NCBI GenBank assembly: GCA_028714635.1
Contig: JAQTLZ010000002.1
Coordinates: 121,841 to 185,840 of the forward strand
Direction: 5' to 3'
DNA from: Minisyncoccota bacterium
GTDB taxonomy: Bacteria > Patescibacteriota > Minisyncoccia > Phycocordibacterales > JAQTLZ01
DNA: 64,000 nucleotides
Every line of letters begins with the position of its first letter. Position 1 is the first letter of the stretch. The notes beneath the pieces were generated by a model. That model ran no database searches and was not told the DNA's origin. It worked only from the letters and a program-made list of their open reading frames with translations. This document shows, one piece after another, positions 1,221 to 59,343 of the stretch. A program made the position numbers and the translations under genes.

Positions 1221-1292
1221 GGTGGCTATGGTGTAGCGGCAGCACAAGAGCTTGTGGAGCTTTTAGTCTGGGTTCAACTCCCAGTAGCCACC
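1221..1292 (+). tRNA. tRNA-His (anticodon GTG) with genomically encoded G-1
   Basis: Manual cloverleaf: G-1 at 1221, acceptor GTGGCTA/TAGCCAC, D arm GTGT-AGCGGCA-GCAC, anticodon loop TTGTGGA, T arm CTGGG-TTCAACT-CCCAG, C73. CCA is not encoded (CAA follows). Confidence 0.9.
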
Positions 1293-1325
1293 CAAGGAAA
1301 CAAAACAGCCGAAAGGCTGTTTTGT

Positions 1326-1467
1326 CTTGGGTGGCTAAGTGAGCAACCAAGGTTGCTCACGTCTGGGAGTTGAAGCCCGATTGAGCACACCGCCCTTTTA
1401 AAACAAAAGGGCGGGGTCCAATCGGGGTACTGCTTCTGTAAGAAGCGACATCCCCAGTAGCCACCCA
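1326..1467 (+). ncRNA. tRNA-His-derived structured element containing copy A of the GUACWG/UGUAA motif
   Basis: Outer helix GGGTGGCT(1329-1336)/AGCCACCC(1459-1466). Hairpin 1339-1360. CTGGG(1363-1367)/CCCAG(1453-1457). P-a helix CCCGATTG(1376-1383)/CAATCGGG(1419-1426) enclosing hairpin 1391-1415. GTACTG 1427-1432. Hairpin CTTC-TGTAA-GAAG 1433-1445. Confidence 0.6.
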
Positions 1468-5052: not shown

Positions 5053-6720
5053 ATGACTCAAGCAGAAGCGCTGAAAATTTTAAAAACGGGAGCAAATATT
5101 TTTCTCACGGGAGAGCCAGGGAGTGGCAAGACGCATACTATAAATGAATATACGCGCTATTTGCGTCAATGCGGGATTGAGCCCGCTATTACCGCTTCGA
5201 CAGGCATTGCCGCGACCCATATCGGAGGAATGACCATTCATTCGTGGAGCGGGATTGGAATTCGGAAATTTCTCAATGGATATGATCTGGATAAAATTGC
5301 GACCAGCGAATATGTGGCAAAGAGGGTCCGCAAAGCCAAAGTGCTGGTGATAGACGAAGTCTCGATGCTTTCTCCGGAAACTCTCTCGATGGTTGACGCG
5401 GTGTGTCGGGAAGTGAAAGGGAATACTGACGCGTTCGGAGGAATGCAAGTGATTTTTGTCGGAGATTTTTTCCAGCTTCCGCCGGTTGTGAAAGCAGATG
5501 TGGAATCTGAAAGCCAGTTATTTGAAGAAGAAGCTCCTCCTCGCTTTGCATATGGTTCGCCTTCGTGGAGAAACGCGAAAGTGCTTACCTGCTATTTGAG
5601 CGAGCAGTACCGCCAGGATGATAGTGATTTTCTCTCGCTTCTCTCTGCGATTCGGCAAAATACTTTCGGCGACGCGCATAAAGAACATCTTGAAGCGAGA
5701 AAGATTGGAGAGAAGAAAATTTCAAAAGATGTGCCTCGGCTTTTTTCTCATAATGCGAATGTTGATCTTTTGAATGACCAGATGCTCGGAGCACTCTCTG
5801 AAGAACCGCATGTATATCTCATGACCTCGAGTGGGAAACCCTTTTTAATTGAGGCGTTAAAAAAGGGATGTCTCTCTCCCGAAAAACTTTCACTGAAAAT
5901 CGGCGCATCGGTGATGTTTACCAAAAATAATCCCAAAGAAGGATTTGTAAATGGAACACTCGGTACTGTTTCCGGATTTGAGTCGAGTTCAAATTTTCCT
6001 ATTGTACAACTTCGAAATGGAAAAAAGATCGTGGTAACTCCGCTCGAATGGTCCGTGGAAGAAAATGGAAAAGTGCGAGCGCAAATTTCACAGCTTCCTC
6101 TTCGTCTTGCATGGGCGATTACGGTGCATAAAAGCCAAGGGATGAGCCTGGACGAGGCGGTGATGGATCTTTCGCAGGTGTTTGAATACGGACAAGGATA
6201 TGTGGCCCTTTCCCGCGTGCGCCGACTTTCAGGATTGCATCTTCTCGGTTGGAATGCAAAAACATTTCAGGTGCATCCGGAAGTGCTCTCGAAAGATGAG
6301 TCATTTCGAATTGCGTCGGATGAGGCGGCAGAAATTTTCGGGAAAATTTCTGCCGCCGAGCTCGACAAAATGCACGACAATTTTGTGAAAATATCTGGAG
6401 GGAACAGGCCAAAGCCAAAGATCGGTAGCTCGGAAGTGAAAGGTGACCCCAGTAGCGAAGCTATGCTCGCTACGGGGCAAGGAAAGAAAACGCTCGAAAA
6501 AATAAGAGAAAAACATCCGAATGCCTATCGTAAATGGGATGAAGCCCAAGATAAACAACTCAAAGATTTATTTGCAGAAAAGAAATCAATCCCTGATCTT
6601 ATGAAATTGCTCGGAAGGAAAAAGGGTGCAATTCAGATGCGTCTTTTGAAATTCGGACTTATCGAGGATGATGGTTTTTCTTTAGCCTTTCAGAAGAAAA
6701 AAGCAAAAAAGAATGGATAA
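5053..6720 (+). CDS. PIF1/RecD-like SF1 DNA helicase with a C-terminal HTH-like tail
   Basis: 555 aa. Walker A GEPGSGKT, VLVIDEVSM, FVGDFFQLPPV, and TVHKSQG near the C-terminal core. Confidence 0.85.
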   Translation: MTQAEALKILKTGANIFLTGEPGSGKTHTINEYTRYLRQCGIEPAITASTGIAATHIGGMTIHSWSGIGIRKFLNGYDLDKIATSEYVAKRVRKAKVLVIDEVSMLSPETLSMVDAVCREVKGNTDAFGGMQVIFVGDFFQLPPVVKADVESESQLFEEEAPPRFAYGSPSWRNAKVLTCYLSEQYRQDDSDFLSLLSAIRQNTFGDAHKEHLEARKIGEKKISKDVPRLFSHNANVDLLNDQMLGALSEEPHVYLMTSSGKPFLIEALKKGCLSPEKLSLKIGASVMFTKNNPKEGFVNGTLGTVSGFESSSNFPIVQLRNGKKIVVTPLEWSVEENGKVRAQISQLPLRLAWAITVHKSQGMSLDEAVMDLSQVFEYGQGYVALSRVRRLSGLHLLGWNAKTFQVHPEVLSKDESFRIASDEAAEIFGKISAAELDKMHDNFVKISGGNRPKPKIGSSEVKGDPSSEAMLATGQGKKTLEKIREKHPNAYRKWDEAQDKQLKDLFAEKKSIPDLMKLLGRKKGAIQMRLLKFGLIEDDGFSLAFQKKKAKKNG

Positions 6721-7771
6721 AGCGCTTATTCAAAGATTGGAAAAAGCAATTTCAGAAAAAACATTTCCCGGATGCGTCTTGGGAATTGTTTCTCGTGATG
6801 GCAAAAGGAGCATTTTTCCAGTTGGGAATTTTACTTATGAAAAAGATTCTCCAAAAGTTACAGAAAACACGATATATGATCTGGCTTCAATTACGAAATC
6901 AATCCCAACTTCTTGTGTTCTTCTGAAACTCCTTGAAAAAGGGAAGGTGAATATCGAGGATAAAGTTACGGATTTCATTCCCGAATTCGGAAATTTTCCT
7001 GAAAAAAAAGAAGTTACAATCAAAAATCTTCTCACCTATACATTGGAGCTTCAAGTTCCTGGACTTTCGTCGCTTAAAGATAAGACTTCGGAAGAAATTG
7101 TTGCGGAAGTCGTGAATGCACCTCTCAAGTCTCGGCCCGGTTCAAGATTTTTCTACAACAACGCAACAGCGCTTCTCATCGGTTTTGTCATCCAGAAAAT
7201 TATAAAAGAACCGCTCGATATCTATGCTGAAAGGGAATTTTTTGCACCGCTCGGTATGAGTCGGACGACATTCCATCCGGAGCGATTTCCGAAAATGGAA
7301 ATCGCTCCAACAGAAATAGACGACTGGCGGGAGAGAGTAATTCAAGGTGAAGTTCATGATGAAAGCACCTTCACGCTCCAGAAAAAATATTTTTTTGGCA
7401 TTGCCGGAGCTTTTTCTACGGTTCCCGATTTTCTCAATTTTCAAGAGATGCTTTTGAATGGGGGAGTCAAAAACGGAAAAAGATATTTCTCTGAAAATAT
7501 GATTCAAAAAATGCATACCAACATGATGCCGGACGCGAAAGGTGAGCCAGTAGGCCTCGGCTGGAATATTTATAATCCTCTGTATATGGGCACCAAAACA
7601 AGCAAAGAAGTATTCGGCAAAACTGGTTTTACCGGCACTCTTGTTCTGACCGATCCAGTGAAAGGTGTTGGATTTACACTTCTTTCAAACAGAACTTTTC
7701 CAAAACGCCCAAAAGATTCAAATCTCATAAACGCCGTCAGAGGCGATATTGCAGACATAATTTTTTCATAA
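6713..7771 (+). CDS. serine hydrolase, beta-lactamase/transpeptidase-like family
   Basis: 352 aa. SxxK motif (ASITKS) and YxN motif (FYNNAT). Overlaps the helicase stop by 8 nt. Confidence 0.8.
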   Translation: MDKALIQRLEKAISEKTFPGCVLGIVSRDGKRSIFPVGNFTYEKDSPKVTENTIYDLASITKSIPTSCVLLKLLEKGKVNIEDKVTDFIPEFGNFPEKKEVTIKNLLTYTLELQVPGLSSLKDKTSEEIVAEVVNAPLKSRPGSRFFYNNATALLIGFVIQKIIKEPLDIYAEREFFAPLGMSRTTFHPERFPKMEIAPTEIDDWRERVIQGEVHDESTFTLQKKYFFGIAGAFSTVPDFLNFQEMLLNGGVKNGKRYFSENMIQKMHTNMMPDAKGEPVGLGWNIYNPLYMGTKTSKEVFGKTGFTGTLVLTDPVKGVGFTLLSNRTFPKRPKDSNLINAVRGDIADIIFS

Positions 7772-17042: not shown

Positions 17043-17588
17043 ATGGCAAAACAAAAAATAGACGAAGGGCGAAATTGGTATGTCATCCACACCTATGCTG
17101 GATATGAAAATGCCGTTGCTCGAAACCTAAAACAGCGCATCGAATCTCTTGGAATGGAGAACAAGATTTTCAACGTGCTCGTTCCAACAGAAAAGAAGAT
17201 CAAAATTAAAGGAGGGAAGCGAGTAGAGGAGGAAGAGAAAATTTATCCCGGATACATTCTTGTGGATATGATCGTGACTGATGATTCTTGGTACGTAGTT
17301 CGAAACACTCCTCGTGTGACCGGCTTCGTCGGCTCTGGAGTATACCCAGTTCCAATCGATCAGAAAGAAGTAGACGCGCTCTTCAAGAGAATGCAATCCG
17401 ATACCGTAAAGCACACGATTGATCTTGCTCCAGAAGACCATGTGATGATCGTTGACGGCCCATTCAAGGATTTGGACGGCAAGGTAAACGAGGTTGATCA
17501 GGAAAGAGGCAAGGTGAAAGTGCTTGTTTCGATGTTCGGACGAGAGACGCCAGTAGAACTCGACTTCCTTCAGGTCAAAAAGGCTTAA
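17043..17588 (+). CDS. nusG: transcription termination/antitermination factor NusG
   Basis: 181 aa. WYVIHTYAGYENAV N-terminal domain and a KOW motif (VDGPFKDLDGKV). Confidence 0.95.
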   Translation: MAKQKIDEGRNWYVIHTYAGYENAVARNLKQRIESLGMENKIFNVLVPTEKKIKIKGGKRVEEEEKIYPGYILVDMIVTDDSWYVVRNTPRVTGFVGSGVYPVPIDQKEVDALFKRMQSDTVKHTIDLAPEDHVMIVDGPFKDLDGKVNEVDQERGKVKVLVSMFGRETPVELDFLQVKKA

Positions 17589-17616
17589 AAAAGTTTAGCT
17601 GAAGCAAACTTTTTTA

Positions 17617-17658
17617 ACGTCGGGCTTTTTTCCTGAAATAATGAAAAAAGCCCGACGT
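17617..17658. terminator. 15-bp inverted repeat between nusG and rplK (terminator/attenuator)
   Basis: ACGTCGGGCTTTTTT/AAAAAAGCCCGACGT with a 12-nt loop. Preceded by a second hairpin, AAAAAGTTT..AAACTTTTT. Confidence 0.55.
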
Positions 17659-17709
17659 AAACTAGTTCAGTTGCAAATAAGAAGAAATTAAGATAACCTA
17701 CACACACTT

Positions 17710-18132
17710 ATGGCAAAGAAAGTAACAAAAAAATTGAAGCTTGTGATCGCCGGGGGAAAGGCAAACCCAGCTCCACCAATTGGCCCTGCGCTTGGTCAGG
17801 CTGGTATTAACATTGGGGAGTTCGTCACCAAGTTCAACGCTGCAACCAAGGATATGATCGGAGACCTCGTTCCCGTACAGGTTTTTGTATACGAAGACCG
17901 AACATTCTCTTTTGTCACCAAGACTCCTCCCGCATCGAGCCTTATCATGAAGGCGATCAAGATCGACAAAGGTTCAGGCAAGCCAAACACCTCAAAAGTA
18001 GGAAAGATCAGCCGAGCGCAGATCAAAGCAATTGCAGAAAAGAAACTTCCTGATTTGAATGCGAATGATTTGGCTGGGGCTATGAAGATTATTGAGGGAA
18101 GCGCCCGCTCAATGGGGGTTGATGTGATCTAA
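17710..18132 (+). CDS. rplK: 50S ribosomal protein L11
   Basis: 140 aa. [19 protein letters not shown] signature. Confidence 0.95.
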
Positions 18133-18224
18133 ATCACATCAACCGACCTTTTGAGACAGAATTCCGCGTATGCGCGGAAATTATGTCCAAAAGGTGTACT
18201 GCTCCTGTAAGGAGTTGATGTGAT
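18118..18224 (+). ncRNA. copy B of the GUACWG/UGUAA motif with flanking triple repeat
   Basis: GTTGATGTGAT (18118-18128, end of rplK), its complement ATCACATCAAC (18133-18143), P-a ACCTTTTG/CAAAAGGT (18146-18153/18188-18195), inner hairpin TTCCGCG..CGCGGAA, GTACTG 18196-18201, CTCC-TGTAA-GGAG 18202-18214, then GTTGATGTGAT again (18214-18224). Confidence 0.6.
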
Positions 18225-18240
18225 TGGATAAATAATGATA

Positions 18241-18278
18241 AAAAGCCCCGCGCCGTAAGGAGCGGGGCTTTTCTTTTT
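18241..18278 (+). terminator. rho-independent terminator
   Basis: GCCCCGC(18245-18251)/GCGGGGC(18262-18268), then TTTTCTTTTT. Confidence 0.8.
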
Positions 18279-18297
18279 CCTGTGATATAGTATTTTC

Positions 18298-20943
18298 ATG
18301 GAAAATTTTACTCCTAAAAATCCAGCCGAACTCGAACTTCAGCTCCAGAAGGCCAGCCAAACTCTTGGAGAATCTATTGCCGTTCCTTCTAAAATAGCAG
18401 ATACGCTTGGTATTTCTTTAGAAGACCTTAAGGTCAAGTTTCCTCGACGATACGAGGCGTATCTCAAGCTTATCCGAGCTGAGAAAAACAACCAGGAAAT
18501 TCCGCAAGAAGATCTCGAACATTTTCAAAAATGGATTCGAGCACTTAACAATCTTGATCGTTATATAGAATCACAAAAGACCGAAATCGGCAGAACCCTT
18601 CGTGAAAAACAAGTAGGCGTTTTCGAGGATATGAGGGATTTCGTGGAAGAGGGTGGCCAGGCTGGTTACGTTAAATTACCTACGGGATTTGGTAAGACTG
18701 TCATTTTCTCTCAATTCGTAGAGGCTCTTGGCTTACGTACACTTATCGCAGTCCCCAAGAAGAATCTTGTCCACCAAACAGCAAAAAGCCTTGAACGGTT
18801 CACTGATCTTGATGTTGGAAAACTGTATCAATATGCCAAAGAGCACGATAAGCCAGTGACGGTTAGTACATACCAATCGATGATAAAGGAAACTGAAGAT
18901 GGAGGATTAAAGCCGGAAGAGTACGACTGCCTTATCTTGGACGAAGCGCATAAAGCACTTGGGCCAAAAAGTGTTCACACCATTGAAAAGTTTGATCATG
19001 CGCTCCGGCTCGGATTCACAGCCACTCCGCAATATTCTGAAACAAAAGGAGTGCAAGATCTTTTGGAAACAGAAATCCACAGCATCTCGATCAAAGAGGC
19101 TGTGGACGATGGGGCGCTTTCCTCCTTTTCGGTCATTTTAGCAAGAACTAAAGTAGACCTTTCGAAAGTAAAGGTGAAATCTGACGGAGAATATGATGAA
19201 AAAGATTTGGAAAAAGCCATAAACGTAGCTTCCCGCAATATGGCTGCAATCAATCTTTATAAAAAGATGTTTAATGGAAAACACGCAATGGCCTATTGCG
19301 CTGGTGTCGAACATGCCCGGGAAGTTGCACGACTTTTCAACGAAGCTGGCATCAAAAGCGTAGCGGTCGCAGGTGAAGACCATCTTTCGGAAGAAGAAAT
19401 GTTGGATATCTTTGAAAAATTCCGTTCAGGAGAGATCAAAGTGATTACCAATGCTGATATTTTTGTCGAAGGATTCGATGAGCCGAAAGCTTCTGTGTGT
19501 CTCAATTTGCGCCCAACCGCATCACCGGTCGTGGCAGAACAGCGGGGCGGTAGAGTTTTGAGACTAGATCCTTCCGATGAGAATAAGCACGCGTTTATCG
19601 TTGACTTTGTTGATGAGGATGAGAAGGCAGATTCCATAAATATTTCTTTTGCAGAAGTTGCGGAAGCTTCTGAATTTCCTCCGAGGACAAACTCGCGTCT
19701 CGGAGAGGTCACTCCAGATCAAACTGAATCAGTTTCTCGCGAGAAAAGCGATATTGTCATCGAAGGGCTGGAGCTTGTAACTGATCCGAATGAAGTTATG
19801 AGGCTCGTACAGAACAAGGCGTCCAGAAAAAAAGGAACAAATGCCGAGCTAGAAGCTCAGGAAATACCGAAATGCCCGGAAGGATGGCTTGCCGTTTTGT
19901 ATTTTTCTGATGACCAACATAAAAAATATGGTTTAAAAAGATATATGGAACGTTCCATAATTTCTAGGGTAGAGCGCAAAAACGCGCATCTCTTCGGTCA
20001 ATTTAGAAGCGAGCGAAAAACGCAAGATACAGAGTGGTTTTTGTCGCCTGAAGCGCAGGCTCTTATTGAAAAGGATATGGCTTATCATGCGGGGTGGGAC
20101 TTGAAAGAGAGAGGATATACTTCTGGGCTTGAGCTCAGTAAAAGATTCGCTCTTTTTAGAGAAAAATTTCGACATTTGGAAGATGAAATATCAGAGGCGG
20201 ATCCGCAAGCGATAATTACCCGTACCTATCAGAGATTTTATTCTGCGGATGCAATAAAAGAAATTGAGGCTGTTTATGGCAAGTTTGCTCCAGAGGGATG
20301 GATTTATCGGGCGGATATCTTCCGTAAATATTTTGGCGGTAGTAAAACTGGGGGTGACGCAGGGAACAAGTTGGTGGAAAAGTTGAAGAAAGAGATGCCT
20401 GATGAAGTCGATGTGTTTGTGAATAGGCCAACTGGCCATAGTTTAGAGTTCTATTCGCCTCGTTTTGTTGAAGAGTTTGGGAAGAGAGATATAACCAGTG
20501 TCTACAAAAGCAAAGAAGAAAAAGCAAAGCGCATCGAGGATAAGAAGCGGGAAGGTCCTCCTTCGGGGTGGTTTCCTGTGAAAGATATTGTTATTTTGTG
20601 TCGAATTAAGGAACCTTTCCTCAGGCGCAAATTGAATGATATGGAGTTTTTGCACGATAATGAAATTAAAAATCTCGCTTTCGGCTTTAAGACGAACATA
20701 CTCTGTGCCACGGCAAAAATAATTCGCCAAATTATCCTGGATGATTGTAAACGTATCAAAACGGGAGAGCCGCCAGCTGGCTGGCAATCAACAGATGAGA
20801 TTTTACAGGCAAGAAGCTTAGAACTGCAAGATTTCTACTATAAACTTCTTTCTTTGCTGCCGACTCCAGAGACTATGAAGAGATATACAAAGAAAGGTGT
20901 CACTGACTACTATTTCAGTCCTGATTTTTTGGCAAAGTTATAA
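18298..20943 (+). CDS. SF2 DEAD/DEAH-box (ResIII-type) helicase with a repeat-containing C-terminal extension of about 430 aa
   Basis: Motif I PTGFGKT, motif II LDEAHKA, motif III FTATPQ, plus a helicase-C region. TGATATAGT -10 box ends 6 nt before the ATG. Confidence 0.8.
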   Translation: MENFTPKNPAELELQLQKASQTLGESIAVPSKIADTLGISLEDLKVKFPRRYEAYLKLIRAEKNNQEIPQEDLEHFQKWIRALNNLDRYIESQKTEIGRTLREKQVGVFEDMRDFVEEGGQAGYVKLPTGFGKTVIFSQFVEALGLRTLIAVPKKNLVHQTAKSLERFTDLDVGKLYQYAKEHDKPVTVSTYQSMIKETEDGGLKPEEYDCLILDEAHKALGPKSVHTIEKFDHALRLGFTATPQYSETKGVQDLLETEIHSISIKEAVDDGALSSFSVILARTKVDLSKVKVKSDGEYDEKDLEKAINVASRNMAAINLYKKMFNGKHAMAYCAGVEHAREVARLFNEAGIKSVAVAGEDHLSEEEMLDIFEKFRSGEIKVITNADIFVEGFDEPKASVCLNLRPTASPVVAEQRGGRVLRLDPSDENKHAFIVDFVDEDEKADSINISFAEVAEASEFPPRTNSRLGEVTPDQTESVSREKSDIVIEGLELVTDPNEVMRLVQNKASRKKGTNAELEAQEIPKCPEGWLAVLYFSDDQHKKYGLKRYMERSIISRVERKNAHLFGQFRSERKTQDTEWFLSPEAQALIEKDMAYHAGWDLKERGYTSGLELSKRFALFREKFRHLEDEISEADPQAIITRTYQRFYSADAIKEIEAVYGKFAPEGWIYRADIFRKYFGGSKTGGDAGNKLVEKLKKEMPDEVDVFVNRPTGHSLEFYSPRFVEEFGKRDITSVYKSKEEKAKRIEDKKREGPPSGWFPVKDIVILCRIKEPFLRRKLNDMEFLHDNEIKNLAFGFKTNILCATAKIIRQIILDDCKRIKTGEPPAGWQSTDEILQARSLELQDFYYKLLSLLPTPETMKRYTKKGVTDYYFSPDFLAKL

Positions 20944-21024
20944 TTCTCGTCTTCGTCTATACTTATATAGACCAAGAATTTATCGTATATGTTAAACTAA
21001 TTCCATTATCATCTCTTTATTTTT

Positions 21025-22878
21025 ATGAACAAAAAAGGATTTTTGCCGGTTCTCATTGGAATAATTATCGCACTTCTTTTAGTCGGCGGGGGAATATTCT
21101 ATTTTGTTAAAAAACAGCAAACGGTATCTTCCTCTGTTGATGCTGTTTCTACTGCTGATTGGAAAACATATGGAAACGAGAAAGACGGTTTTGAATTTCA
21201 GTATCCCCCAAAATTTAAAATTGACCCAAATGCTTCCGAAGTATTTTTCGACATAACAGGAGAAGATAATCAGGTATTTTTTAGTGCTTCTGCTGACCCG
21301 ATCGTGGATGCACATGGAGTACCTTTGACTTTCGAAAAGTGGCTCAAATATTATGGCTTTGACGAGGGGTACAAAAGAGAAAACAGAACAATCAACGGGA
21401 ATTCATGGCTACGTTTAGAAGGTTCGGGTCGCGGTAGGACTTTTTATATTCTCGTGAAAGGAAATATGATGTACAGCTTTATTATGGGCTATGGAGCTCA
21501 GAATCGGCCGGACTTGCTTTTGTTGCAGGATAAAATTGTTACCACTTTCAAATTTACCTCTAATTCCATCTCCACTTCCGATTGGAAAACATACAGAAAC
21601 ATAAAAGAAAGATTTCAAATGCAGTATCCTCCCAGTTGGAAGGTGGTTGAAAATGTTTCTGCTCCATATCTTGTAAAATTTGTTGATCCTCTTCGTGAAG
21701 CAAAGCCGGGTACCGATCAGTCGGAAGATATGGTCTTAGTAGGTACGGGCACAATAAAACCCGCTGACTGGGAGAAAGGCTCCGGTTCGGTTTTCTGGAA
21801 GCAGGATTATGTAACGGGGGAACGCTACGTAAGAATGTCAGCCTTTGATGAAACTTCAGAAAAAATTGAAGAAAAAATTCAGTCTAGTTTTAGATTTTTA
21901 GAAGAAAAGGCGGGATGGTCTAGCTATCGAAGTACAACAGATCAATTTGATATATCTTATCCCGGCCTCTCGGCTCTGAATTTTTGGAAATTAAAGCAAG
22001 AACCCATAGAAGTTTATACCAATAAGTTACTTTTCGATTCAAGAGGGTGTCTTATAAGTAATCAAAAAAATCCTCTTGAATATATTGGAAGCCCTCTTCT
22101 TGGTGGTATTCAATTTTGTCTTAATCAAAGCATTGATCGTTCGATGGGAAATGTTTCTCTCGATTATTACTACACTACATTTAAATTCGGGAAATTTTAT
22201 GTAATTCACCTCAAGTCTGAAGGTCTTTGCACAGCCGATTCTTCAAAATCCTCTGATATTTGCAGTCTTGATAACCCCTCTGTCCAGTCGCGCATAAGGC
22301 AAGATGGGGATGAAGTTGCACTGTCTTTCAAATTTTTGGAGCCAGATCAATCAAAAGCTGATTGGGATACGTCCCCGGCAGATTGGTTGGTTTATAAGCA
22401 CCCGATTTATGGGTATTCTCTCAAATATCCTAGGAGTTTCTCGAACCATGATAGAGGAGAATCAGGAGAGAATTTAATTCCGCCCAATGATTATTTTGAG
22501 GGAACCACATTTCATGGCGGAGCCAGTTTTATAACCGGTATAAATGATGTTGATGAAAAAAACTGTTCAATGATACCTTATCGTTCCACTCAAGAGCTGG
22601 CCCGTGTTGTGAAGGATGGGCAAGTCTATTATAAAATTCAAACGAGCACTATCATGGCGGGAGATCCAAGGGACAGAGATCTCACTATTCAATACAGCGC
22701 GTTTAAGAATAGGGTATGCTATCAACTTACATTGAGCATGTATATCGTGAATCCTTCATCTGTTTATTCCAATCCTGAAGAAATTCTCAATGCCCAAAAA
22801 CAGAATATTATAGTGGAAGAGAAGTTGAAAAAACTATTTGATGTGATTGCTCAGACTTTTGTTGTACCGGCTAATTAG
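21025..22878 (+). CDS. membrane-anchored extracellular repeat protein
   Basis: 617 aa. N-terminal TM, and four modules each opened by (D)W..Y.....F...YP (DWKTYGNEKDGFEFQYP, DWKTYRNIKERFQMQYP, GWSSYRSTTDQFDISYP, DWLVYKHPIYGYSLKYP). Confidence 0.7.
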   Translation: MNKKGFLPVLIGIIIALLLVGGGIFYFVKKQQTVSSSVDAVSTADWKTYGNEKDGFEFQYPPKFKIDPNASEVFFDITGEDNQVFFSASADPIVDAHGVPLTFEKWLKYYGFDEGYKRENRTINGNSWLRLEGSGRGRTFYILVKGNMMYSFIMGYGAQNRPDLLLLQDKIVTTFKFTSNSISTSDWKTYRNIKERFQMQYPPSWKVVENVSAPYLVKFVDPLREAKPGTDQSEDMVLVGTGTIKPADWEKGSGSVFWKQDYVTGERYVRMSAFDETSEKIEEKIQSSFRFLEEKAGWSSYRSTTDQFDISYPGLSALNFWKLKQEPIEVYTNKLLFDSRGCLISNQKNPLEYIGSPLLGGIQFCLNQSIDRSMGNVSLDYYYTTFKFGKFYVIHLKSEGLCTADSSKSSDICSLDNPSVQSRIRQDGDEVALSFKFLEPDQSKADWDTSPADWLVYKHPIYGYSLKYPRSFSNHDRGESGENLIPPNDYFEGTTFHGGASFITGINDVDEKNCSMIPYRSTQELARVVKDGQVYYKIQTSTIMAGDPRDRDLTIQYSAFKNRVCYQLTLSMYIVNPSSVYSNPEEILNAQKQNIIVEEKLKKLFDVIAQTFVVPAN

Positions 22879-22912
22879 AGTCTCTCCAGTGTTACCCTAT
22901 ATCTATCAACAG

Positions 22913-22940
22913 AAAATACTATCATATATGATAGTATTTT
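22913..22940. terminator. perfect palindromic bidirectional terminator
   Basis: AAAATACTATCATATATGATAGTATTTT, between convergent genes. Confidence 0.75.
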
Positions 22941-22976
22941 AGGAAAGGGAAAGGTCTACGTATAAGTGCTTTTTGA

Positions 22977-23906
22977 TTACATAGTGAAACCAGATGCAAT
23001 CATCTCACTAAGTTTCTTGCGCAGTATCTCATAACCATCGGGGATTTTTCTTCCTTGTTTTGTCTCCAGCATATGTTTTATGGGTCTTATAAGACCTGGG
23101 AATTTCGATCTTCTCAAGAGATCTTTGTCCTTTTGACCACTATAGAATGAGAAAGTCTGCTCTGCGAAAAGATTTCCATAATCCCACAAGCCAGCAAAAT
23201 CTGCTGCCGGATCTGCGATGTCGATATCTGAAAAATCAATAATGCCGGTTAAGGCTCCTGTGGTTTGGTCAAAAAGTATATGTTTGTTGTTTAAATCATA
23301 ATGAATTATTTTTGGTTCAAAGTCGAAAGACAGACCGAGATATTCATTGAACTGGTGTTCAACCCAGTCAACCTCTTTGTTTGTCAATTCAGGAAAAACT
23401 TTCTCTCGTAACTCTTTTAAAATTGATTCGATATTTCGCTTTCCCCACCAGTGCCCTTTCGGATCAGCCTTGAAACCGCAGTTTCTCAATATCTCCGTCG
23501 GCGTCGAATGTAAATCCGAAATAAATTTTCCTAATGCTTTGGCGATATCAGTTTTTTGAATTTCACTTTGTGAATTGAAAAGTTCAGGTTGCATTTCAGT
23601 ACCAGTCAGCATTTGATATCCACCAAAGCTCCTGTCTTTAGAAAGATAGATATATTTGGGAATGGGTAGCGTTACTTTTGTGAGTAGGTGTTCTAGGAAT
23701 TTTACCTCCACTTGAAAACGTCGAATATAATTCTCCGATTTAGGAAAACGGAAAATGAGCCTATCGTCCAAGACGATCACATTGTTATCCCATCCATGAG
23801 TGATCAATCTGGAATTTTGAAACGAAACTTCGGGGAATTCCTTTTTTATAAGCTCCAGATATTCTTCTTTTGTTCTTTCCATAACTATTTTTCCAAAGTG
23901 ACCCAA
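22977..23906 (-). CDS. aminoglycoside/choline-kinase-like phosphotransferase (APH family)
   Basis: 309 aa. Brenner motif IIHYDLNNKHILF and IIDFSDIDIADP. Confidence 0.75.
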   Translation of the reverse strand: MGHFGKIVMERTKEEYLELIKKEFPEVSFQNSRLITHGWDNNVIVLDDRLIFRFPKSENYIRRFQVEVKFLEHLLTKVTLPIPKYIYLSKDRSFGGYQMLTGTEMQPELFNSQSEIQKTDIAKALGKFISDLHSTPTEILRNCGFKADPKGHWWGKRNIESILKELREKVFPELTNKEVDWVEHQFNEYLGLSFDFEPKIIHYDLNNKHILFDQTTGALTGIIDFSDIDIADPAADFAGLWDYGNLFAEQTFSFYSGQKDKDLLRRSKFPGLIRPIKHMLETKQGRKIPDGYEILRKKLSEMIASGFTM

Positions 23907-43890: not shown

Positions 43891-44961
43891 ATGAACAATG
43901 AGCCCCAAAATACCCTCATTCATATCTCCACGGGCACGATCATTAAAAGTCTCCTGTTTATTATCCTTGTCCTCGCCCTCTATTTTTTAAGAGATATCGT
44001 TCTCATTATTTTGACGGCGATCGTCATTGCATCAGCTATTGAACCAGCGACTCGATATCTTGTAGAGAAAAAAATTCCTCGGACGTTCTCTGTCGTTATT
44101 CTCTATGTACTTGTTATTTTTGCTCTTGCAGCTGTCTTTTATTTCCTTCTACCGACCCTTCTTTCAGAGACGACAAGTTTCTTGGAGAGAATAAACTCCA
44201 TCGATGTCCTCGGATCTTTGAAAGAACAAGGAATACTCTCTCCTGACAATCCGCTCCAAGGCCTTTCTTCGCAGTTTAATCTGCAAGGAGTTATCGGCTC
44301 TGTTCGGGGAGTGGTGAACCAGTTTTCGAGCGGGTTCTTTAATACTGCAAGCATCCTTTTCGGTGGAGCGCTTTCTTTCATTCTCATATTCGTGCTCTCT
44401 TTCTATTTTGCGGTGCAGGAAGACGGAGTGGAAGATTTTCTTCAAGTAGCATCGCCTATTCGGTATAAAAATTATGTAACGGATTTGTGGAAGCGTTCAC
44501 AGAAGAAGATTGGCCTCTGGCTTCAAGGCCAGCTTCTTCTCGGGCTTCTTGTCGGAGTTTTGGATTTTCTTGGCCTTACTATTTTCGGAATTAAGCATGC
44601 GCTTCTTCTCGCGGTCCTCGCAGCACTTTTGGAGATCATTCCGCTTTTCGGCCCAATTCTCTCTGCAATTCCAGGTGTTGCTATCGCGTTTGTGAGCGGA
44701 GGTACCCCGCTTGCGCTTTTAGTGCTTGCTTTGTACGTCATTGTTCAGCAGTTTGAGAATCATCTCATCTATCCTTTGGTGGTAAACAAAATAGTGGGTA
44801 TTTCGCCGATTCTTGTTATCATTTCGCTCCTTGTCGGTTGGAGACTTGCGGGATTCCTTGGGGTGCTTCTTTCTGTCCCGGTCGCGGCGGTATTCATGGA
44901 ATACTATTCTGATGTGCGAAAGAATAAATTCGGGCACCTCACCAAGGTGAGGGAAGGGTAG
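43891..44961 (+). CDS. AI-2E/PerM (UPF0118) family transporter
   Basis: 356 aa, 7-8 TM helices, LLEIIPLFGPILSAIP signature. TGATATGAT -10 box ends 6 nt before the ATG. Confidence 0.8.
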   Translation: MNNEPQNTLIHISTGTIIKSLLFIILVLALYFLRDIVLIILTAIVIASAIEPATRYLVEKKIPRTFSVVILYVLVIFALAAVFYFLLPTLLSETTSFLERINSIDVLGSLKEQGILSPDNPLQGLSSQFNLQGVIGSVRGVVNQFSSGFFNTASILFGGALSFILIFVLSFYFAVQEDGVEDFLQVASPIRYKNYVTDLWKRSQKKIGLWLQGQLLLGLLVGVLDFLGLTIFGIKHALLLAVLAALLEIIPLFGPILSAIPGVAIAFVSGGTPLALLVLALYVIVQQFENHLIYPLVVNKIVGISPILVIISLLVGWRLAGFLGVLLSVPVAAVFMEYYSDVRKNKFGHLTKVREG

Positions 44962-44977
44962 GGACCCGTCCCGCAAG

Positions 44978-45030
44978 ACCTTGAGTGTTTTGTAATCAAA
45001 AAGCGAAAGGTGTACAGCTCCTGTAAGGAG
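44978..45030 (+). ncRNA. copy C of the GUACWG/UGUAA motif, upstream of metG
   Basis: P-a ACCTT(44978-44982)/AAGGT(45007-45011) enclosing hairpin TTTTG-TAAT-CAAAA. GTACAG 45012-45017. CTCC-TGTAA-GGAG 45018-45030. Confidence 0.55.
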
Positions 45031-57399: not shown

Positions 57400-59343
57400 A
57401 TGAATTATAAAACAAAGAGAGTAGTTGCAGGAGTTCTCGGTTTGGCAATGGCAGTCTCAATGGTTGCTGCTGCTGGAGGAGCTCTTACAGCTTTGGCTTC
57501 GTTCGACGTAAACCTTACTGTCGGCTCAACAGGAGCAGATGTAACGGCACTTCAAAACTGGCTTATTGAGAACGGATTTCTCAGTATCCCAGCTGCGACT
57601 GGCTACTTCGGTCCTTTGACCCAATCAGCAGTTGCTGCTTATCAGACAAGTGTTGGTATTACACCAGCAGCTGGTTATGTAGGTCCAATCACTCGAGCTA
57701 AGCTCAACGCGGGCGGTTCAGTTTCTGGAAACTTCCCAGCAGGTTGTACAAGCGCTTCAGGTTACAGCAGTGTAACAGGATTGCCTTGCGCACCGATTGG
57801 TTTCCCAGCAGGATGTACTTCAGCTTCAGGATTTAGTTCAACAACTGGACAGCCATGTTCGGGTGGTGGATCTTTCCCAGCAGGATGTACTTCAGCTTCA
57901 GGATTTAGCACAACAACCGGAATGTCATGTTCTGGCGGTTCATCAGGAGGTGGTTCACTTTCTGGTGGCGCAGGTGAAATAACAGTAACTGCTAAGACAG
58001 CTGGTACAGAAACCACTGTTGGCGAAGGAAAAGAGGAAAAGGTCCTCGGTATGGAGATAGAGGCTGATGATAACTCTGATGCTGAAATCACTTCTATGCG
58101 ACTTATCGCTACTGTTGACACCGATGGAGCAACAAGATTCAACCGATATGTTGACGAAGTAAAGGTATATATGGGAAGCAAAGAGGTAGGTTCATTGGAT
58201 TCATCTGATTTCTCACGAGATGCAGCTGAATTCACTGGAACCATTTCTCTCCATGGTGCCGTCGTACAGAAAGGCGAGAAAGTTCGATTCTATGTCGCTT
58301 TTGTCGCTAACAACATTATTGATTCTGATGATCTAGACAATACGATCAATCTCGTCGTAAGTCGAATCCGATTTACTGACGCTACAGGAGCAATCCTCAC
58401 AAATGAGGACATTGATACTGATGATGTGACCGTATCTTTCGAAGACGCAACAGAAAGTGATGGAGCAAAGGTGCAATCAGACTCTTCTACACCTGATGCA
58501 CAGATTTTGAAAGTTGAAGATAATAGTAGTTCAGAAGAATACCATATCTTCTCATTCAAGATTAAGTCAGACTCAGGCGCATCTGATATGGAGGTCACAT
58601 CGCTTCCTATCAACCTCTCAATCTACAACGCATCTACTACAGCTATCAACACGGAAGACTTGATTGATGATATGTATGTGATGATTGGTGGAAAGAAGTA
58701 TGATGATTACACATTCGACAACACAAGTATTGCTACAGCTAGTACAGAGACCGCTATAGCTACCTTCACCATAGACGAAGGAGATCTAACAGTTGACGGT
58801 GGTACTACTGAGCAAGCTAAGGTGTACGTCAAATTCGGTAGACAAGAAGACAAATACGCTGCTGCTGATACAACAGTTACAGCTTCTGTCGTCGGTTCTA
58901 CTATTGACGCAGAAAACTCTAACGGTGATACCATTGACTTGACTGGTACTGTCACTGGAAAGACAATGACAGCTGCTATTTCTGCTGCTGAAGTCACAGA
59001 CTTCACTTGGGCAGTAGGAACTGGCGGAACATACATAGACTTCTTCTTCACAGTAACAGCTGGCGATGAAGACTTCGATGTTCTTACAGCAAGCATTGCT
59101 TCTTCTACATCTGGTAATGCAACAACATCTTCTGGAACTCTCACAAAGAGCTCTGGCGATGATGTAACTAGCATTTCAGGAGGATTCACTGTCGCTTCTG
59201 GAGATACAACAACGTTCAAAGTTAGATACTTGGTAACAGGTTCTAACGGAACAATCTCAACAGTAACGATTACTTCTGTGGCTGGACAAGAGGTACCTGA
59301 CAACAAACAGGAATCTCCTACAGCAACAAGAAACGTTTACTAA
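57400..59343 (+). CDS. secreted peptidoglycan-binding-domain protein with Cys-repeat and Thr/Ser/Asp-rich beta region
   Basis: 647 aa. Signal/TM, PG_binding_1-like segment (GADVTALQNWL..GYFGPLTQSAVAAYQ), and three FPAGCTSASG(F/Y)S..TG..C repeats. Confidence 0.75.
   Translation: MNYKTKRVVAGVLGLAMAVSMVAAAGGALTALASFDVNLTVGSTGADVTALQNWLIENGFLSIPAATGYFGPLTQSAVAAYQTSVGITPAAGYVGPITRAKLNAGGSVSGNFPAGCTSASGYSSVTGLPCAPIGFPAGCTSASGFSSTTGQPCSGGGSFPAGCTSASGFSTTTGMSCSGGSSGGGSLSGGAGEITVTAKTAGTETTVGEGKEEKVLGMEIEADDNSDAEITSMRLIATVDTDGATRFNRYVDEVKVYMGSKEVGSLDSSDFSRDAAEFTGTISLHGAVVQKGEKVRFYVAFVANNIIDSDDLDNTINLVVSRIRFTDATGAILTNEDIDTDDVTVSFEDATESDGAKVQSDSSTPDAQILKVEDNSSSEEYHIFSFKIKSDSGASDMEVTSLPINLSIYNASTTAINTEDLIDDMYVMIGGKKYDDYTFDNTSIATASTETAIATFTIDEGDLTVDGGTTEQAKVYVKFGRQEDKYAAADTTVTASVVGSTIDAENSNGDTIDLTGTVTGKTMTAAISAAEVTDFTWAVGTGGTYIDFFFTVTAGDEDFDVLTASIASSTSGNATTSSGTLTKSSGDDVTSISGGFTVASGDTTTFKVRYLVTGSNGTISTVTITSVAGQEVPDNKQESPTATRNVY
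57733..57945 (+). repeat. three tandem 69-72-nt coding repeats
   Basis: Units start at 57733, 57802 and 57874. Units 2 and 3 share an identical 35-nt stretch, TTCCCAGCAGGATGTACTTCAGCTTCAGGATTTAG. Confidence 0.85.

Follow-up and report, generated by a model that had tools for sequence, protein, structure and literature searches.

A small structured element with a target-matched arm at the end of rplK, probably one of a family of non-autonomous mobile elements of Paceibacteria/Parcubacteria

We analysed a 64,000-nt stretch of a Minisyncoccota bacterium contig (JAQTLZ010000002.1; hereafter the window, with positions counted from its first letter), in which the ribosomal protein gene rplK ends inside a structured sequence that we designate copy B. 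Comparison with close relatives identifies copy B, as far as sequence can tell, as a recent insertion of a small (~96–99 nt), non-coding, non-autonomous mobile element. We consider it probable that this element belongs to a family, specific to Paceibacteria/Parcubacteria, of non-autonomous mobile elements that carry an arm matched to their target.

The rplK open reading frame (ORF; 17710–18132, on the + strand, as are all features of copies A, B and C given below) encodes a ribosomal protein L11 of 140 aa and closes with the codons GGG GTT GAT GTG ATC TAA. It was assigned from the ORF list and from the Pfam domains Ribosomal_L11_N/L11 on its homologs, which include a database protein 100% identical to it. 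The last five codons and the stop now lie within the first hairpin, Pa, of copy B (18116–18214), which cmsearch recovered over the full length (1–84) of covariance model R1, built from an alignment of 43 self-contained copies (A1), with 54.4 bits and E = 1.6e-12. According to sequence, fold and model alignment, the 5′ strand of Pa is the rplK end itself (GGTTGATGTGAT, 18117–18128). Its loop, CTAA (18129–18132), holds the present stop codon (TAA, 18130–18132), and its 3′ strand is an arm, X′ (ATCACATCAACC, 18133–18144), that is perfectly complementary to the rplK end. Since the covariance model assigns the 5′ strand of Pa to the rplK end, gene end and complement together constitute the first hairpin of the element. 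They are followed by a long hairpin, Pb (ACCTTTTGAG...CCAAAAGGT, 18146–18195), with a conserved base and a variable distal part (8 of 11 pairs changed on both sides), by the junction GTACTG (18196–18201), which occupies invariant or near-invariant columns of A1, and by a short hairpin, Pc (CTCC TGTAA GGAG, 18202–18214). Pc is supported by covariation and forms the right end of the element, as identity between copies is lost after ...AAGRAG. Immediately downstream, GTTGATGTGAT followed by TGGATAA (18214–18231) corresponds to the displaced ancestral rplK end and, by comparison with two relatives described below, to a target duplication of 10–11 nt.

A preliminary description of this DNA had reported the order gene end, CTAA, complement, motif and gene end again, with a 12-bp hairpin at the gene end. 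The order is exact: GTTGATGTGAT lies at 18118–18128, inside the rplK end, its exact complement ATCACATCAAC at 18133–18143, the motif part of copy B at 18146–18214 and a second GTTGATGTGAT at 18214–18224, the first G of which is common to Pc. This 11-mer occurs exactly three times in the window (18118+, 18133−, 18214+), against a mean of 0.01 in shuffled sequences, none of 100 shuffles reaching three. The hairpin is present as well, with an extra C18144:G18117 pair that brings it to 12 bp, and it forms in the RNA fold of 18100–18290 (−83.2 kcal/mol, z = −8.8).

Sites lacking the element were found in relatives. The L11 proteins closest to that of the window are 96–98% identical, 141 aa long and end in GVDVIG, against GVDVI in the window. 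In two of the compared loci, which we label with L-numbers, the orthologous rplK 3′ flank (L121 and L122) reads ...GATGT(C/G)ATTGGATAA and runs into a hairpin with a T-run; both lack the element. The second gene-end copy of the window and what lies beyond it (GTTGATGTGATTGGATAA, then the terminator) match this ancestral rplK end. Relative to these loci, ~96 nt have been inserted into the last two rplK codons, with 10–11 nt duplicated and a new stop codon placed in the Pa loop. The two other copies in the window also have empty counterparts: L123 and L125 have ..ACCAAGGC(G/T)TAA and 4–10 nt before metG at the site of copy C, without element, and in L127 the tRNA-His gene, which precedes copy A in the window, runs directly into unrelated sequence. 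These three filled-versus-empty comparisons with close relatives uphold the earlier view of the downstream copy as a target duplication.

The same arrangement had also been read as a cis-acting RNA switch, in which gene end and downstream copy compete for the arm and thereby control read-through from rplK into a helicase gene. Two mutually exclusive pairings can be drawn on paper and the fold is very stable; as in terminator/antiterminator attenuators, there are three segments, of which the first and third can both pair with the second. However, the element is absent from the close relatives with 96–98% identical L11, and the helicase is not a conserved neighbour, the relatives having a 160–171-aa gene and then DHFR. 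The X:X′ hairpin continues into CGACCTTTTGAG, the start of Pb, without a U-run, and the minimum free energy structure is dominated by this gene-end hairpin, leaving the downstream copy unpaired. The only hairpin with a T-run near copy B, GC-rich and downstream of both gene-end copies, is at 18244–18279, the position it also occupies in L121 and L122. The conventional terminator reported after copy B thus exists, but it is the old intrinsic terminator of rplK and no part of the element. Furthermore, downstream copies decay in place: the orthologous elements of L103/L105, L054/L079 and L064/L207 differ by 1–2 nt in their cores and have decayed downstream repeats, and among other L11-end copies L033 retains 7 nt of the repeat and L111 and L116 are degenerate, again with cores kept. 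Orientation relative to flanking ORFs was 53:43 upstream and 53:50 downstream, by crude ORF calls. Unlike attenuators, then, the element has an unconserved third segment, is polymorphic among relatives, is not oriented with genes and lacks a U-run after the first helix. The decay of the downstream repeat together with the unbiased orientation leads us to reject a terminator/antiterminator function, and a switch of any such kind is highly improbable; no regulatory role of the element for rplK or the helicase has been demonstrated.

Besides copy B (54 bits), the covariance model matched the window at 44946–45030 (86 bits) and 1338–1445 (32 bits). The last of these belongs to copy A (1326–1476; 31.8 bits), downstream of the tRNA-His gene (1222–1293; without encoded CCA), where the layout is as previously described and has the topology seen at rplK. 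Here the arm is in two parts, X′b (1326–1337) and X′a (1363–1374), separated by Pa (1338–1362); Pb (1376–1426), GTACTG (1427–1432) and Pc (1433–1445) follow, and then a repeat of the tRNA 3′ end and trailer (1453–1476). Copy C (44946–45030), which had been overlooked, lies between an AI-2E transporter gene and metG and has a self-contained Pa. It was inserted at ..CCAAGG|, so that the transporter now ends in ..LTKVREG* with its stop within the Pa loop, and it has no flanking complement or duplicate. In the relative L126, a diverged ortholog of copy A with a Pc variant stands behind a tRNA-His with a different T-arm (GAGAG/CTCTC), and this element keeps remnants of the window-type T-stem, which suggests that the tRNA-His allele was replaced beside a resident element; a population search for the allele by metagenome scan gave no match.

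These copies belong to a family of small, structured mobile elements that is widespread in Paceibacteria/Parcubacteria and previously undescribed. Its architecture in the 43 self-contained copies is GGUGAG, Pa, CGCAAG, Pb, GUACWG and Pc, the latter with the loop UGUAA. Paired cells reached 93.9% in the alignment, against only 40–52% in slid controls, compensatory changes were present in 16 of 25 pairs, and 181 cells were changed on both sides, compared with 55 ± 6 in shuffles. In Pc, a C:G to U:A exchange was seen in 14 of the 43 sequences, and further Pc stems outside the search pattern (ACCC/GGGT, CGTC/GACG, GAGTC/GACTC and TTCC/GGAA) had a constant UGUAA loop. G·U pairs amounted to ~2% of cells and were equally frequent on either strand, and with pairs of this kind so rare and strand-symmetric, the helices resemble DNA palindromes more than long-selected RNA helices. 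The sense strand folded better than the antisense in 46 of 52 copies, chiefly via loops and G·A mismatches.

A conserved 21-mer, GKGTACWGCTYCTGTAAGRAG, had more than 120 matches in a species-representative genome collection, all in Patescibacteria and mostly in Paceibacterota/Parcubacteria lineages, and more than 120 in metagenome contigs, giving a total of over 240 copies. Viral contigs searched for the 21-mer yielded no match, and a phage origin was discarded. Rfam gave no match to the element at gathering or permissive thresholds, returning only tRNA and, at permissive thresholds, sub-threshold terminator look-alikes, and no description of the element was found in literature searches. We also discarded a known ribozyme or intron, for which there was no model match and no sign of splicing out, stop codons being supplied or intact copies standing beside interrupted ones. 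Group I introns of Patescibacteria tRNA genes interrupt a functional gene, are spliced and are detected by the Intron_gpI model (PMC13011429); the present element, in contrast, has no Rfam match and leaves a functional tRNA or gene end intact beside it, the interrupted pieces being pseudo-copies.

Near-identical copies at unrelated sites (the L043 pair; L008/L058/L140; L176/L236) share exactly GTGAG...AAGRAG, and their identity ends right after ...AAGRAG. This marks the self-contained form as a discrete mobile unit; it has no terminal inverted repeats and no clear target duplication. Its 5′ flanks are purine-rich (..AAG, ..GGG, ..GAG; also ..GAC and ..AGT), with no strict target motif seen, and the density is about one copy per 20 kb. 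In one sub-lineage (L009, L154, L242, L224, L241 and L057), common flanks (..ATTTTYTGGG | element | AGGATTT..AAAACYTCGGCT..) are found across different genomes and may represent one orthologous site in some conserved RNA or intergenic region. Three further ideas about what the element might contribute were tried and dropped. It is not a general provider of Shine-Dalgarno sequences, as Pc has UAAGGAG but the next start codon is 11 to 190 nt away; it is not a coding element, the frame being open through it in two copies (L093 and L005) but not in most; and Pa of self-contained copies is not enriched in matches to the right flank.

The target-matched layout of copies A and B recurs in dozens of other copies, and it is this recurrence that argues against coincidence, although many self-contained copies, including copy C, lack any flanking complement or duplicate. 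A direct repeat of at least 10 nt, and up to 40 nt, brackets the element in 45 of 114 copies with enough flank. Thirty-seven of 125 copies lie 90–200 nt downstream of a tRNA gene on the same strand, with 9 just upstream and 6 opposite. Among 34 downstream copies, an inverted perfect copy of the own tRNA 3′ end was present over at least 9 nt in 27 (control with other tRNAs, 6%) and over at least 12 nt in 18 (control, 0.3%), and direct repeats of 9 nt or more were present in 19 of the 34 (2% in the control). Copies linked to tRNAs have their breakpoint within the T-loop: the inverted copy runs up to the T-loop complement (..TTCGAA), where it joins a conserved GAAG junction, and Pa often divides it precisely at the boundary of acceptor and T stems. 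At other L11 ends (L012, L022, L033, L111 and L116) the final codons differ (GIDVK, GIKVL, GIEVK and others), and the arm is perfectly matched each time; the stop codon falls within the loop or at it, and about 12 copies on other ORF ends likewise place theirs within or beside the Pa loop. The earlier observation that the variable arm is matched to the sequence upstream thus extends from rplK and tRNA-His to other L11 ends and to tRNA-linked copies.

Several loci have more elaborate arrangements. Two elements stand in tandem at one gene end in L022 (4800–5110, − strand), L065, L027 and L032, and L022 has three successive versions of the L11 end (IDVK*, IDVR* and.EVR*), each arm matching the copy immediately upstream. 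In L093, L005, L113 and L107, a duplicated 5′ fragment of the downstream gene precedes the element and the intact gene follows; the fragment comprises the first 12–14 codons where the gene is msrA or a GH1 glycosidase, and the 5′ half where it is tRNA-Val. L107 has the order A B A E B and a repeat of 40 nt. In L069 (~5620–5840, − strand) and L100 (~7310–7520, − strand), the Pb loop contains an entire tRNA-Ile gene in antisense, and the outer flanks of the element are the two parts of a tRNA-Ile pseudo-copy interrupted in its anticodon loop. This tRNA was the only gene found in a Pb loop, and no autonomous copy with an ORF at that place was detected.

From these comparisons, the conserved core of the element consists of the arm, Pb, the junction GUACWG and Pc with the loop UGUAA, and the arm invariably requires something to pair with. 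Self-contained copies such as copy C provide this themselves, through the 5′ strand GUGAG-Pa of the element. At rplK, to judge from the relatives, the arm pairs with the last 11–12 nt of the gene, and the second gene end is the original one, pushed downstream. Three cases suggest that the incoming element already includes a copy of the target, to which its arm is paired. The arm of copy A matches the functional tRNA T-loop and stem (TTCAACTCCCAG) perfectly, and the downstream copy (CGACATCCCCAG) resembles the native CGACCCCCAG of L127. In L012, the element-side end reads AAG TAA and the displaced end AAA TAA. In L065, where two elements stand in tandem, the first and last gene-end copies are identical; the one between them differs synonymously (AAAGACGAT TAG) and has an arm matched to it.

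A pre-formed pairing arm could account for this layout. The element would move as a single-stranded or folded intermediate, in which the complementary arm keeps the target copy in a hairpin, as in a folded att site; the site would be chosen by pairing of the arm with the target strand; and an enzyme acting in trans would exchange strands at the 5′ edge of the homology, so that the element would supply a replacement gene end and displace the native one. An excised circle of copy B would then join ...CTGTAAGGAG to GTTGATGTGATCTAA, and the empty site would read GGGGTTGATGTGATTGGATAA. Integration through a folded single-stranded hairpin att site, as in CTX phage with XerCD and in integron attC, produces the order target, loop, complement, cargo, target. 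The element shares this order with integron attC and CTX attP(+), as well as a conserved hairpin structure with variable sequence, apparent from covariation. It differs from them in lacking an integron or dif context as well as any known recombinase, in a stem that copies each target and, with respect to attC, in lacking R″/R′ sites (RYYYAAC...GTTRRRY), its ends being GTGAG... and ...GTAAGRAG. We propose this model, including its insertion enzyme and mechanism, tentatively and with some doubt.

The same mobile element could instead have acquired its arm and direct copy at each insertion or repair event, through fold-back or template-switch DNA synthesis. The triplet of direct, inverted and direct target copies is the classical signature of two template switches, and the inverted copy always reaches 2–3 nt further upstream than the direct repeat. 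At tRNA sites, the gene end, trailer and complement form one long perfect hairpin with a terminator-like tip (window 1284–1337; L025), and the arm ends at the palindromic T-loop sequence TTCGAA, where it meets the GAAG junction. Helices that are almost purely Watson-Crick, with their few G·U pairs spread equally over the strands, and the occurrence of the same core with different arms also agree with such synthesis. However, in L065, and in copy A when set beside L127, it is the upstream copy to which the arm is matched, and the downstream one looks like another allele, which a pre-formed hairpin fits better. Likewise, Pa is placed precisely between the halves of the inverted copy, and a fine architecture common to many independent copies favours a dedicated mechanism over a replication accident. 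On balance we regard template switching as a possible but not a probable origin of the arm.

A complementary segment beside the insertion point recalls IS110 bridge RNAs and the EBS/IBS pairings of group II introns. The element, however, encodes neither recombinase nor reverse transcriptase, has no Rfam match and duplicates its target. A guide-like role of the arm, as first put forward in the preliminary description, fits the anatomy, and the arm may act in this way. Of that earlier interpretation the target duplication stands and the switch falls; the guide idea may hold and is the most interesting part. The elements could also be genes for a functional small RNA, either a guide with scaffold serving an unlinked RNA-guided protein or a tRNA-like RNA in which arm and downstream copy mimic the acceptor and T stems, mobility being secondary. 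A variable 5′ arm of 9–24 nt followed by a conserved hairpin scaffold suits such a function, as do the 21-nt stretch identical in over 240 copies from many candidate phyla, the better folding of the sense strand in 46 of 52 copies and a core better conserved in place than its flanks; in tRNA copies, moreover, the two parts of the arm on either side of Pa form pairs with the repeat just as in acceptor and T stems. Against this, a promoter/terminator scan, in itself uninformative, gave no promoter signal, G·U pairs are rare and symmetric between strands, and tRNA copies have a terminator-like hairpin tip with a T-run ahead of the arm. Many copies also lack a complete downstream partner, and clustering of ORFs from 120 loci revealed no conserved neighbouring protein gene. 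A functional small RNA as the primary explanation is accordingly improbable in our judgement.

The sharp ends of self-contained copies, their subterminal hairpins and the lack of terminal inverted repeats and target duplication are shared with IS200/IS605 elements, palindrome-associated transposable elements (PATEs) and, as regards small size, hairpins and missing inverted terminal repeats, with repetitive extragenic palindromes (REPs) and REPINs mobilised by RAYTs. The element might thus be a REP- or PATE-type substrate of HUH Y1 transposases (IS200-like or RAYT-like) that moves by peel-and-paste, the arm being an extended version of the IS608 guide tetranucleotide. The arm lies 1–2 nt 5′ of the Pb foot and the paired flank ends ~17 nt upstream, resembling C_L and G_L of IS608, where guide and cleavage site are said to pair (work of Barabas and of Guynet); IS200/IS605 elements and PATEs likewise have a short stretch, 5′ to the foot of a hairpin, that pairs with the flank. 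Y1 transposase genes are present in these genomes, with Y1_Tnp genes in 7 of 120 8-kb loci upon clustering of ORFs, and there is a weak bias of the element toward the G-rich strand (67 versus 41). Yet no Y1 gene was flanked by element ends and no parent element with tnpA was found between the same ends. There is also no strict target tetranucleotide, the upstream bases being merely purine-rich, and the pairing spans 9–24 bp instead of 4 nt. Gene-end and tRNA copies have 10–40-nt repeats, and to our knowledge repeats of that length are not produced by any Y1 transposase described so far. We also discarded a RAYT/Y1 transposase as a dedicated partner, since the one examined closely, that of L075, has its own REPs and the window has no such gene. 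In L075 (3100–3270 and 4020–4110), from a Lloydbacteria metagenome-assembled genome, a Y1_Tnp (RAYT-like) gene is flanked not by the element but by five copies of a different palindrome, GTACGAGGTCCGACCTCGTAC, forming a classical REPtron. Mobilisation by a Y1 enzyme is therefore decidedly unlikely, if slightly less so than a primary small-RNA function.

Integration by integrases typically produces direct repeats of tRNA 3′ ends, and the repeats seen here could conceivably be attL/attR scars of larger integrative elements, phage or island, since deleted. A variable, helicase-containing segment adjoins copy B: beyond the terminator, where an 881-aa ORF begins at 18298, the window encodes this ResIII/SNF2-type helicase, a 617-aa protein without Pfam hit and an APH-family kinase (18298–23906), and two close relatives have a single 160–171-aa gene in the slot between the rplK terminator and DHFR. 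The segment is variable and possibly defence-type; it lies outside the element repeat, beyond the old terminator. In addition, the repeats bracket only ~100–200 nt in dozens of loci, with the same conserved core between them every time, and viral contigs had no matches, all of which makes deleted islands a very improbable source. The comparison with tRNA-targeting integrative elements, whose attP carries a tRNA 3′ end, is instructive in other respects: in both, a direct repeat of the 3′ end (here 7–40 nt) flanks the insert, and the functional gene end seemingly comes from the insert, with the native end displaced. The present element differs in its size (~100–200 nt), in having no ORF or integrase, in also targeting protein-gene ends and in an extra inverted target copy that pairs with the gene end.

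Our preferred explanation, a non-autonomous mobile element with a target-matched arm, has several points against it. No enzyme could be linked to the element: Y1_Tnp (IS200-like) genes are in only 7 of 120 loci and absent from the window, and neither the surroundings of Y1_Tnp genes nor ~1 Mb of loci contained an autonomous or split copy with an ORF. In self-contained copies, Pa is unrelated to the flank and the duplication is absent or only ~4 nt long; one mechanism may not serve all forms. The tRNA-linked copies of L017, L032 and L080 have just a 7-nt repeat and then unrelated sequence, a poor fit to a displaced native end. Copies within one genome are strongly diverged, implying that mobility is rare, and the core is conserved in place better than the flanks, which hints at some function at the level of host or RNA. 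Lastly, near-identical cores with different arms, as in L016 (tRNA type) and L036 (self-contained), are explained equally well by an arm written from the target during insertion.

Two further features of the region may be recorded. L121 has a 74-aa GIY-YIG ORF (2715–2939) between nusG and rplK, and the corresponding spacer of the window has only two hairpins (17586–17676). Elsewhere in the window, two tandem 72-nt units with 86% identity (57801–57944) lie in an apparent coding sequence.

The tiny genomes of Paceibacteria thus retain a structured mobile element of ~100 nt in or next to essential genes such as tRNAs and rplK. Rickettsia palindromic elements and other small intragenic repeats of reduced genomes are comparable in being ~100-nt structured repeats tolerated in gene ends and tRNA-linked sites, but they have another sequence and structure, and here the element's own stop codon restores the end of the frame and the arm is matched to the target. 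For annotation, the element alters C-termini (L11 loses Gly141 and the AI-2E transporter gains VREG) and generates pseudo-tRNAs and pseudo-gene fragments, and its 21-nt stretch marks the family across many candidate phyla. The match of the arm and the apparent replacement of gene ends point to a principle of site selection by base pairing in an element that encodes nothing. An unlikely but attractive extension would be programmable, hairpin-guided DNA insertion, in which the 9–24-nt arm, adjoining a conserved scaffold of two hairpins, would specify the site by base pairing and could be rewritten for new targets such as tRNA T-loops and protein-gene ends, and an unlinked enzyme of Paceibacteria would insert the element with the gene end restored. 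Should such an enzyme be found, the element would be a compact targeting module; should there be none, it would illustrate clearly how fold-back or template switching inserts DNA in nature.

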